Counted from the stretch's first letter, positions 1-1,198 are shown. The stretch is 1,818 bases of DNA from Escherichia coli (GCF_003334385.1 NZ_QOWN01000108.1); one strand, 5' to 3'. The notes: generated by a model not told the origin, from the sequence alone. Made by a program: numbers and translations.

Positions 1-632
1 GCCTGCCGGGGCAGCAGTATGATGAGGAGTCCGGCCTGTATTACAACCGCCACCGCTATTATGACCCGCTGCAGGGGAGGTATATCACTCAGGATCCGAT
101 TGGGCTGAAGGGGGGATGGAATTTTTATCAGTATCCGCTGAATCCGGTTCAGTATATAGATTCAATGGGACTGGCATCAAAATATGGACACTTAAATAAT
201 GGCGGATATGGAGCGAGACCCAACAAACCGCCTACGCCCGATCCAAGTAAATTGCCGGACATAGCGAAACAATTAAGACTGCCATATCCTATTGACCAGG
301 CCAGTAGTGCGCCTAATGTTTTCAAAACATTCTTCAGAGCATTAAGCCCTTACGACTACACACTGTATTGCAGGAAGTGGGTAAAACCAAATCTGACTTG
401 TACGCCACAGGATGATTCCCAGTATCCAGGGATGGATACAAAGACAGCAAGTGATTACCTGCCACAGACAAATTGGCCAACAACTCAATTACCACCAGGA
501 TATACTTGTGCAGAACCCTATTTATTCCCAGACATTAATAAACCCGATGGGCCAGCAACAGCAGGGATAGATGATTTGGGTGAAATTTTAGCTAAGATGA
601 AACAGAGAACATCGAGAGGAATAAGAAAATGA
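1..632 (+). CDS. Rhs-family polymorphic toxin, 3' end (5'-partial; codons in phase from position 3): conserved Rhs core terminus plus variable C-terminal toxin (CT) domain; stop TGA 630-632
   Basis: The frame is open from the window start to 632. Translation begins [57 protein letters not shown], which matches the conserved terminal block of the RHS repeat-associated core domain (E. coli RhsA-type cores end ...[30 protein letters not shown]...NP....DPLGL). The ATG at 165 given by the ORF track is internal (Met inside the demarcation motif), not the true start. Whether this is a full-length rhs or an orphan fragment (possibly ybfO/rhsO of E. coli K-12) cannot be decided from the window. Confidence 0.9.
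54..173 (+). other. Rhs core C-terminal signature block, ending in the core/CT demarcation motif [10 protein letters not shown] (144-173), a variant of the canonical PxxxxDPxGL
   Basis: Direct translation: [40 protein letters not shown]. Established knowledge: in Rhs/YD-repeat toxins the PxxxxDPxGL motif marks the end of the conserved core and the start of the variable toxin domain. Confidence 0.85.
174..629 (+). other. Variable C-terminal toxin (CT) domain of the Rhs protein, about 152 aa, activity unknown
   Basis: Sequence after DSMGL: [42 protein letters not shown]...[22 protein letters not shown]. It is proline-rich, has 3 Cys, and shows no HNH, HxxD, deaminase or other catalytic motif I can recognise by eye. 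Hand-counted GC is about 42% in 241-300, against about 59% in 1-120. Confidence 0.7.
614..619 (+). promoter_or_regulatory. Ribosome-binding site for the immunity gene, located inside the 3' end of the toxin ORF
   Basis: AGAGGA at 614-619, 9 nt before ATG 629. Confidence 0.6.
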
Positions 633-685
633 AAAGAGTTTTGTTCTTTTTGCTGATGATATTTGTTAGTTTTGGTGTTATAGCT
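629..685 (+). other. Predicted Sec signal peptide (19 aa) of the immunity protein; alternatively an uncleaved N-terminal membrane anchor
   Basis: [19 protein letters not shown] followed by DCEIQA. There is no lipobox (no L-x-[GAS]-C; an Asp separates Ala from Cys), so it is not a lipoprotein signal. Confidence 0.55.
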
Positions 686-1198
686 GATTGCGAAATACAA
701 GCTAAAGATCATGATTGTTTTACTATTTTCGCTAAGGGTACTATTTTTTCCGCGTTTCCTGTCTTAAATAATAAAGCCATGTGGAGATGGTATCAGAATG
801 AGGACATCGGTGAGTATTATTGGCAAACAGAACTGGGTACATGTAAAAATAATAAATTCACACCAAGCGGGGCGAGACTCTTAATTCGCGTCGGGTCACT
901 ACGCCTTAATGAAAATCATGCCATCAAAGGAACGTTGCAGGAGTTGATAAATACAGCAGAAAAAACGGCGTTTCTCGGCGATCGGTTTAGAAGTTATATA
1001 AGAGCGGGTATCTATCAAAAAAAGAGCAGTGATCCAGTTCAGTTGTTGGCAGTCCTTGATAATTCAATCATGGTAAAATATTTTAAAGATGAGAAACCAA
1101 CTTATGCTCGAATGACAGCACATCTCCCGAACAAAAATGAGTCTTACGAATGTTTAATAAAGATACAGCATGAACTAATTCGTAGTGAAGAGAAATAA
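629..1198 (+). CDS. ybfC: Putative Rhs immunity protein (RhsI-like), 189 aa, with N-terminal signal-peptide-like segment; uncharacterised
   Basis: ATG at 629 overlaps the toxin stop (ATGA, 629-632). A Shine-Dalgarno-like AGAGGA lies at 614-619, 9 nt upstream of the ATG. The N-terminus [22 protein letters not shown] has a basic n-region, hydrophobic core and V-x-A before the predicted cleavage site. Position immediately 3' of an Rhs CT domain is the canonical immunity-gene location. Hand-counted GC is about 30% in 631-720. The symbol ybfC is a tentative recollection of the E. coli K-12 189-aa YbfC downstream of ybfO and needs BLAST confirmation. Confidence 0.85.

Follow-up and report, generated by a model that had tools for sequence, protein, structure and literature searches.

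Most characterised type VI secretion system (T6SS) effectors that act in the periplasm are hydrolases whose immunity proteins carry signal peptides, Tae5/Tai5 being one example. In Escherichia coli K-12, Vlazny and Hill reportedly described in 1995 a viability-block pair made up of the RhsA tip and dsORF-a1, in which the small downstream open reading frame (ORF) counteracts the tip. Rhs toxins are freed at an aspartyl autoproteolysis site consisting of two DPxGL motifs 17 residues apart (PMC8636562), and most of the Rhs tips characterised so far work in the cytoplasm (PMC8636562, PMC8765631). A C-terminal displacement model has been put forward for rhs tips, and recombination can join an orphan tip to a core again (PMC2935791); internal expression is reported for Salmonella orphan Rhs (PMC7043789). 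Here we analyse an 1,818-nt stretch of E. coli DNA (GCF_003334385.1 NZ_QOWN01000108.1; hereafter the window, meaning the whole stretch), which contains the 3′ end of the rhs fragment ybfO, encoding a C-terminal toxin tip (CT), and, directly behind it, the gene ybfC. We propose that nucleotides 174–1198 of the window probably form a polymorphic-toxin module, in which an exchangeable Rhs tip is paired with its cognate immunity gene, ybfC, and acts in the periplasm.

The tip and its partner are linked across divergent Rhs loci

In a word-indexed search, the close tip homologues (at least 66% identity) all lay on Rhs fragments from Escherichia, Salmonella and Phytobacter. When 1.84 billion representatives were searched exhaustively with a profile, 28 CT matches came up, about a dozen of them divergent (27–39% identity); one of the 28, a 2084-aa repeat protein (P0098), was judged spurious. 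Every true match with recovered N-terminal context follows an Rhs DPxGL motif. As far as these searches reach, the tip/YbfC pair is a very small family, confined to Rhs proteins from Gamma- and Betaproteobacteria.

Synteny was followed in both directions. At all seven divergent CT loci (27–39% identity), a signal-peptide-bearing YbfC homologue lies immediately 3′ of the tip, usually overlapping it; by blastp these divergent partners are 24–34% identical to YbfC (E 4e-31 to 1e-7), and hmmsearch on loci outside the profile-building set recovers YbfC homologues at E 1e-43 to 2.5e-12. Conversely, a YbfC profile run against one genome per species recovered ten loci. Five of the ten have an intact tip directly upstream of ybfC (Phytobacter ursingii, Comamonas sp. 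and Burkholderia diffusa among them), carried on long Rhs ORFs wherever the contig permits, and two keep degraded tip remnants. At three (L018, L019 and L020), an intact ybfC homologue (71–72% identity) stands without a tip, and in Pseudocitrobacter vendiensis an ISAs1 transposase fragment occupies the expected tip position (L019 1343–3067). These tip-less homologues look like orphan immunity genes. Strict linkage of tip and partner, together with immunity-only survivors, is the pattern to be expected from a toxin–immunity pair and not from an accidental neighbour. A first-pass annotation, made from the window's sequence, had called the CT and the downstream ORF a toxin–immunity pair of unknown activity, and the strict synteny across divergent loci speaks strongly for that pairing.

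Two of the divergent arrangements deserve separate description. In Comamonas sp. BIGb0152, the putative immunity gene is duplicated, a single orphan tip having two YbfC paralogues in tandem behind it (L008 4735–5301 and 5404–5976; the same region as L024), and the same contig also encodes a full-length 1643-aa Rhs protein with an unrelated 188-aa ORF downstream. At another locus (L003 6195–8981), a divergent tip/YbfC pair is one of several orphan Rhs tips arrayed directly upstream of genes for VgrG (Gp5_C), DUF2169 and a PAAR-like protein; nowhere else is the family tied so clearly, in physical terms, to a T6SS island.

ybfC is coupled to the tip and predicted to be exported

The ATG of ybfC overlaps the CT stop codon as ATGA, with a Shine-Dalgarno GAGG at 616–619, 9 nt upstream, inside the CT coding sequence. 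The junction GAGAGGAATAAGAAAATGA is identical in Phytobacter ursingii (L021), and in Burkholderia diffusa (L025) the tip and the YbfC homologue overlap as TGATGA. YbfC begins with MKR, 15 hydrophobic residues and VIA/D (slash, predicted cleavage), and its Kyte-Doolittle 19-residue maximum is 2.24. An n-region, an h-region and the AXA pattern, with small residues at −3 and −1, recur in all 21 close and 8 distant YbfC homologues, and a Salmonella entry in AFDB that is 67% identical to YbfC carries the name 'Periplasmic protein'. Both the ATGA coupling to a 189-aa ORF and the secreted look of that ORF had been pointed out in the first-pass annotation; the overlap is where it was placed, and the N-terminus reads as a typical Sec signal peptide.

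The mature protein is predicted to fold as a beta-rich sandwich with a WxW...EYxWxxExG motif. Cys30 and Cys175 are invariant in the whole YbfC family, and Cys21 and Cys72 form an additional pair in the enterobacterial subgroup.

A proposed route from Rhs shell to periplasm

In strains with a full-length Rhs protein (N-terminal DUF6531, PAARQGD start), the toxin would be encapsulated in the Rhs shell and, by analogy with other Rhs systems, fired by the T6SS into a neighbouring cell. Aspartyl autocleavage after DSMGL, again by analogy, may release the tip, which would then act on the cell envelope or within the periplasm, a setting that could oxidise the three cysteines conserved in it; exported YbfC would bind and block it in the periplasm, so that sibling cells are protected. 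We favour this site of action because the YbfC signal peptide is universal, the YbfC cysteine pairs are conserved and three cysteines are kept in a toxin core that has no conserved His and no transmembrane segment. In K-12, the toxin half would probably be silent, because the fragment has no delivery domains and because, to our knowledge, K-12 has no T6SS. There, ybfC may, if anything, serve as orphan immunity against attackers armed with this tip, a role that the tip-less ybfC loci of other genera make plausible.

The toxin core resembles no described family

The CT contains 21 prolines (13.8%), eight of them in its first 45 residues, and three cysteines, at positions 66, 76 and 112, as the first-pass annotation had described in calling it proline-rich with three Cys; its sole histidine sits in the non-conserved linker. 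A 19-member family alignment, with identities down to 27%, defines the core by the motifs YPID, SPYDYTxYCxKW, a second Cys, PG.D.KT..DY.P, LPxGYxC.EPYxFP, an AG(I/L)DD..E helix and a cationic RGxRK C-terminus. Invariant or near-invariant across the 19 sequences are P59, C66, W69, C76, P97, P107, G109, C112, A130 and D134, and all three core cysteines are kept in at least 90% of them. The C-terminus pairs a conserved acidic amphipathic helix (AG(I/L)DD..E...) with a cationic tail, the net charge of the last 12 residues being +5 or +6 in each of the six pairs examined.

Database searches placed neither protein. Pfam gave no significant match for CT, YbfC or any member of either family alignment, NCBIfam, PADLOC and PHROGs none for CT or YbfC, and PDB sequence and profile searches with both proteins returned chance-level matches only. 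In Pfam, NCBIfam and PADLOC, the CT matches none of the described toxin domains (HNH, other nucleases, deaminases, ADP-ribosyltransferases, Ntox/Tox, peptidoglycan hydrolases, lipases), and in Pfam and NCBIfam, YbfC matches none of the described immunity families (Imm, SUKH, NTF2-type and others). Foldseek against AFDB50 found only uncharacterised family members (the Salmonella 'Periplasmic protein', Paracidovorax, Delftia and Lentisphaera). By these searches the tip/YbfC family is undescribed, with no detectable relatives among described toxin or immunity families, in keeping with the earlier remark that the CT carries no recognisable catalytic signature. Assignment of the CT to a well-characterised toxin family, which the first-pass annotation had named as an outcome that would overturn its reading, did not come about in any of these searches. 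I-TASSER assignments published for the Rhs tips of enterohaemorrhagic E. coli (PMC7216683) were set aside, as their TM-scores are low and the RhsC tip treated there is not confirmed as YbfO-type.

An AlphaFold2 model of the CT comprises a small three-stranded sheet and helices, of which only the sheet reaches a predicted local distance difference test (pLDDT) score of 70–87. When mature YbfC was fused through a glycine-serine linker to the CT core and modelled from a MAFFT alignment with the linker in all rows, YbfC folded confidently and the pLDDT of the CT sheet rose only slightly, from 70–80 to 80–87.

What the core might do can be approached from its conserved residues. Hydrophobicity analysis of the CT found no hydrophobic or transmembrane segment, which makes a classical pore-former unlikely, and the alignment of 19 sequences contains no conserved His and no hydrolase, nuclease, ADP-ribosyltransferase or deaminase signature. 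Because the core has no His or catalytic set but does have the acidic amphipathic helix and the cationic tail, we lean, weakly, towards envelope binding or perturbation rather than classical hydrolysis or other catalysis. The serious rival to this leaning is a novel enzyme: the CT may degrade a periplasmic substrate such as peptidoglycan, lipid II or phospholipid with catalytic residues that have escaped recognition (Cys112, Asp134 or Asp61, for instance), and YbfC would then be a classical periplasmic active-site blocker. Periplasmic T6SS hydrolases with signal-peptide immunity proteins provide the precedent, and C112 and D134 are invariant, with C66, C76 and D61 nearly so. Nevertheless, we consider an enzyme somewhat unlikely, as the alignment holds neither a conserved His nor any Ser/His/Asp, HExxH, HKD or Cys-His arrangement, no family member has a Pfam match, no PDB profile match or structural neighbour appears, and the core measures only ~115 aa.

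The module is widespread and conserved in E. coli

Of 5426 complete E. coli genomes, 3518 carry a single copy of the tip–ybfC unit (nt 174–1198), with 96–100% identity. Its carriers differ. At the rhsC locus of strain 300709 (L002) and of O157:H7 (L015), a 1399-aa 'RHS element core protein' ends in this tip; in strain P31_YH1 (L014), the tip ends the Rhs protein beside nikR (the nikR/rhsB locus); and in K-12, rhsC bears a different tip (with ybfB) and the YbfO tip sits behind it, on an N-terminally truncated core. Occurrence at the rhsC locus, at the nikR/rhsB locus and as a K-12 orphan behind another rhsC tip, together with a GC content lower than that of the core, marks the tip as exchangeable. 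The architecture of the K-12 copy identifies it as a displaced orphan tip exactly of the kind described in PMC2935791. The N-terminus of the full-length carrier reads MSGKPAARQGD and is accompanied by DUF6531 (E 6e-18) and RHS repeats.

Comparison of the K-12 allele with the 96% allele gave ratios of non-synonymous to synonymous substitution rates (dN/dS), calculated from small counts, of 0.10 for the tip (8 synonymous, 3 non-synonymous) and 0.26 for ybfC (13 synonymous, 14 non-synonymous), and both genes appear to be under purifying selection. In a transcriptome of Shiga toxin-producing E. coli, rhsC and ybfC (listed as 'putative secreted protein') were higher together with T6SS genes (PMC6033998), showing that the unit is transcribed in some strains, though the groups compared there also differed in gene presence. 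A promoter and terminator scan found nothing above background level.

Two further observations concern the tip and its surroundings. An in-frame ATG, the Met codon of DSMGL, opens a 155-aa ORF (window 165–632) that is nearly exactly the released tip and that might, by analogy with Salmonella orphan tips, permit internal expression of the orphan toxin. On the 3′ side of ybfC, strain P31_YH1 (L014 7269–9406) and O157:H7 (L015 7297–8353) have small genes annotated as 'NTF2 fold immunity protein' and 'DUF6258 family protein'. They make up a series of further orphan immunity genes, which are missing from this position in K-12.

These data also bear on the possibility that the segment in this genome is an evolutionary relic, an undeliverable displaced toxin fragment and a leftover ORF amid insertion sequence (IS) debris. 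RefSeq marks the rhs fragment as a pseudogene without its N-terminus, three broken ISAs1 copies come next, K-12 is generally known to have no T6SS, ybfC is frameshifted in O157:H7, and degraded copies occur in Citrobacter youngae and Phytobacter. We nonetheless regard a relic as unlikely: both ORFs are intact and conserved at 96–100% in 3518 genomes, the dN/dS values are 0.10 and 0.26, ybfC stays intact where the toxin has gone (L018–L020), and an orphan tip can regain a core by recombination (PMC2935791) or be expressed internally (PMC7043789).

Site of action and points against the proposal

Location was considered for both partners. YbfC might instead be an outer- or inner-membrane lipoprotein acylated at Cys21, which comes after the hydrophobic segment, and some homologues have sequences that resemble a lipobox (AIAAC, ALASC, AIGAC). 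Yet the residue preceding Cys21 is D in E. coli and D, N, T, A, S or Y among YbfC homologues, so that the lipobox [LVI][ASTVI][GAS]C is inconsistent across the family, and Cys21 is missing from distant subfamilies, whose signal peptides end AFA/E, ASA/M and AIA/N; we rejected the lipoprotein reading on the inconsistent lipobox and think it quite improbable. That the CT acts in the cytoplasm as a nuclease, ADP-ribosyltransferase or NADase, with YbfC an unrelated exported protein linked by chance, would match the usual behaviour of characterised Rhs tips (PMC8636562, PMC8765631) but is very improbable, given that a YbfC homologue lies immediately 3′, usually overlapping, at seven of seven divergent CT loci, that no other small ORF between or after tip and YbfC is common to those loci, that nuclease, ADP-ribosyltransferase and deaminase profiles give no match, and that the conserved Cys triplet suits an oxidising compartment.

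Several points count against a periplasmic toxin–immunity module. The Pfam PAAR match of the full-length carrier is weak (E 0.21) and no vgrG was seen adjoining the E. coli tip loci, so that delivery by a T6SS is inferred from other Rhs systems. The CT fold is poorly predicted (mean pLDDT 53.7) and has no fold neighbour, and cleavage of the YbfC signal peptide was judged by rules, without a trained predictor such as SignalP. The leaning towards a non-enzymatic tip, weak as it is, draws only on the missing conserved catalytic residues of a shallow alignment. In two O157:H7 genomes, the full-length Rhs protein retains the tip and ybfC is frameshifted (L015 6456–7026), one extra T turning GTTTTGTTCTTTTT into a T9 run within signal-peptide codons 3–7 (window ~636–649). 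Such a loss would be unexpected if the toxin were actively exchanged among kin; it may be tolerated because the toxin would be harmless in the producer's cytoplasm. Finally, our search of the literature on ybfO and ybfC found no functional study of the pair.

On balance, we still hold the tip and ybfC to be, in all probability, a toxin and its periplasmic immunity protein. A bolder proposal is also conceivable, namely that the YbfO-type tip stands for a class of Rhs toxin that is new, small, disulfide-locked and non-enzymatic and that kills from the periplasm, either because it binds some essential component of the envelope or because its conserved acidic-helix/cationic-tail C-terminus perturbs the membrane, that YbfC is a new beta-sandwich immunity fold sequestering the tip, and that the module is an active determinant of E. 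coli strain competition, unnoticed in K-12. Taken as a whole this is unlikely; the role in strain competition, if true, would follow from the 65% of genomes that carry the module and from the lineages that keep the immunity gene alone.

The locus and its surroundings

Features of the module and the adjoining Rhs core are collected in Table 1. The whole window is 100% identical to the chromosome of K-12-type E. coli (O16:H48), where it corresponds to the ybfO 3′ end, ybfC and ybfQ at the rhsC locus, and 99.9% identical in many other strains. It holds the final 57 codons of the orphan Rhs core, the tip, ybfC, ybfQ and the beginning of the next IS copy, within the annotated gene order kdpFAB, ybfA, rhsC, ybfB, Rhs fragment (the classical ybfO), ybfC, ybfQ and two further broken ISAs1 transposase genes. 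RefSeq labels the ybfO fragment 'RHS repeat-associated core domain-containing protein, missing N-terminus', and PF03527 and PF25023 on a close homologue (P0002) identify the region ahead of the tip as an RHS core.

Table 1. Features of the tip–ybfC module and the adjoining Rhs core, numbered from the first nucleotide of the window. CT, C-terminal toxin tip.
Feature	Position (nt)	Strand	Basis
Rhs core end of ybfO (57 codons, aspartyl autoprotease plug)	3–173	+	Translation, RefSeq annotation
DPIGL cleavage motif	93–107	+	Translation
DSMGL cleavage motif	159–173	+	Translation
CT, 152 codons	174–629, stop 630–632	+	Translation
CT residues 1–37, Pro-rich, poorly conserved linker, predicted disordered	174–284	+	pLDDT <50, variable in alignments
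CT residues 38–152, conserved toxin core, with stop codon 630–632	285–632	+	19-member alignment
Coupling region: Shine-Dalgarno GAGAGGA (614–620) inside CT coding sequence and ATGA overlap (629–632)	614–632	+	Sequence
ybfC ORF, 189 codons	629–1198	+	Translation
ybfC signal peptide, residues 1–19, signal-peptidase-I-type AXA site ahead of Asp20	629–685	+	Hydrophobicity, conservation
Mature YbfC, 170 aa, proposed periplasmic immunity protein	686–1198	+	

The two cleavage motifs are spaced by exactly 17 residues, the second having Ser in place of Pro; homologues show DPMGL, DSLGL or DALGL at that position. GC content is 0.605 for the orphan core upstream of the window and 0.526 for the last 173 nt of that core, and drops to 0.432 in the CT and to 0.367 in ybfC. 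Much of this had been anticipated in the first-pass annotation, and every feature it described is found at the coordinates it gave: its CT of about 152 aa after the core demarcation motif agrees with the 152 codons that follow DSMGL, its statement that both reading frames are more AT-rich than the Rhs core is borne out by the GC values, and the identity with K-12 ybfO/ybfC that it had raised is settled by the perfect match and the annotation. Chance does not account for these features, given conserved homologues for each of the two ORFs and the 100% match in K-12.

Beyond ybfC, the window contains a 158-nt direct repeat (1281–1438 and 1661–1818; 95% identity, spacing 380 nt), which is the left end of an ISAs1/H-repeat element and includes the first transposase codons (MELKK...). 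The second copy starts within the transposase gene of the first, a nested IS-into-IS insertion that leaves the 84-aa ybfQ (1424–1678), whose product matches positions 1–51 of the ISAs1 transposase NF033564 (E 6e-18).

Significance

Rhs tips of unknown function are common, and the YbfO tip stands out among them by three features. Its module resides in the bacterial genome that has been studied best, and about two thirds of the complete E. coli genomes have it; no relative of it is detectable among described toxin or immunity families; and it is among the few Rhs tips with a clearly exported partner, which points to an envelope target. The immunity-only remnants and the frameshifted O157:H7 allele are natural genotypes on which a role in strain competition could be examined. 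The activity of the CT could reveal a new way to kill Gram-negative cells from the periplasm, and a function for the tip and YbfC would explain two long-standing 'y-genes' of K-12.

Comparison with known systems

The kind of system is well known; this toxin/immunity family is uncharacterised. As in the RhsA tip/dsORF-a1 pair of K-12, the arrangement is that of an E. coli Rhs tip of clade I followed on its 3′ side by a small ORF. The sequences are unrelated, and the RhsA pair is said to act inside the cell, whereas the YbfO tip has an exported partner.

Among T6SS Rhs toxins, Rhs1-Tre23 of Photorhabdus laumondii (PMC8636562) and RhsA of Pseudomonas protegens (PMC8765631) share with YbfO a YD-repeat core, two DPxGL motifs 17 residues apart, a non-homologous tip of lower GC, a translationally coupled small ORF directly 3′ and, in other strains, a full-length carrier of ~1400 aa. 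The YbfO tip differs from them in having no similarity to Tre23 or to any described toxin domain. Their immunity proteins are cytoplasmic, whereas YbfC appears to be exported, with a signal peptide and conserved Cys pairs, and the E. coli carriers lie outside a vgrG/eagR island and have a weak PAAR match.

A second likeness is to the periplasmic T6SS pairs, comprising the Tae/Tai amidases, the Tle/Tli lipases, L,D-carboxypeptidases of the Tlde1/Tae5 type and the VgrG2b C-terminal metallopeptidase (PMC6899460, bioRxiv 10.1101/2020.02.18.954545). There too a signal-peptide-bearing immunity protein is encoded directly after the effector, which should do no harm in the cytoplasm of the cell that makes it. 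The catalytic motifs and folds of those effectors can be recognised, however, while the CT has none and its core is much smaller, at ~115 aa; and they travel as free or VgrG-fused cargo, whereas the CT would, by analogy with other Rhs toxins, be delivered as an Rhs-encapsulated tip.

Closest in architecture are the displaced or orphan rhs tips described by Jackson et al. in 2009 (PMC2935791) and the Salmonella orphan Rhs (PMC7043789). As there, a partial core, a tip and an immunity gene lie 3′ of an intact rhsC–ybfB, the same tip occurs on intact rhs genes at two loci elsewhere, and IS (H-repeat) elements flank the unit. In architecture the YbfO locus is no different from these; what it adds is a previously undescribed tip/immunity family and a set of immunity-only remnants.

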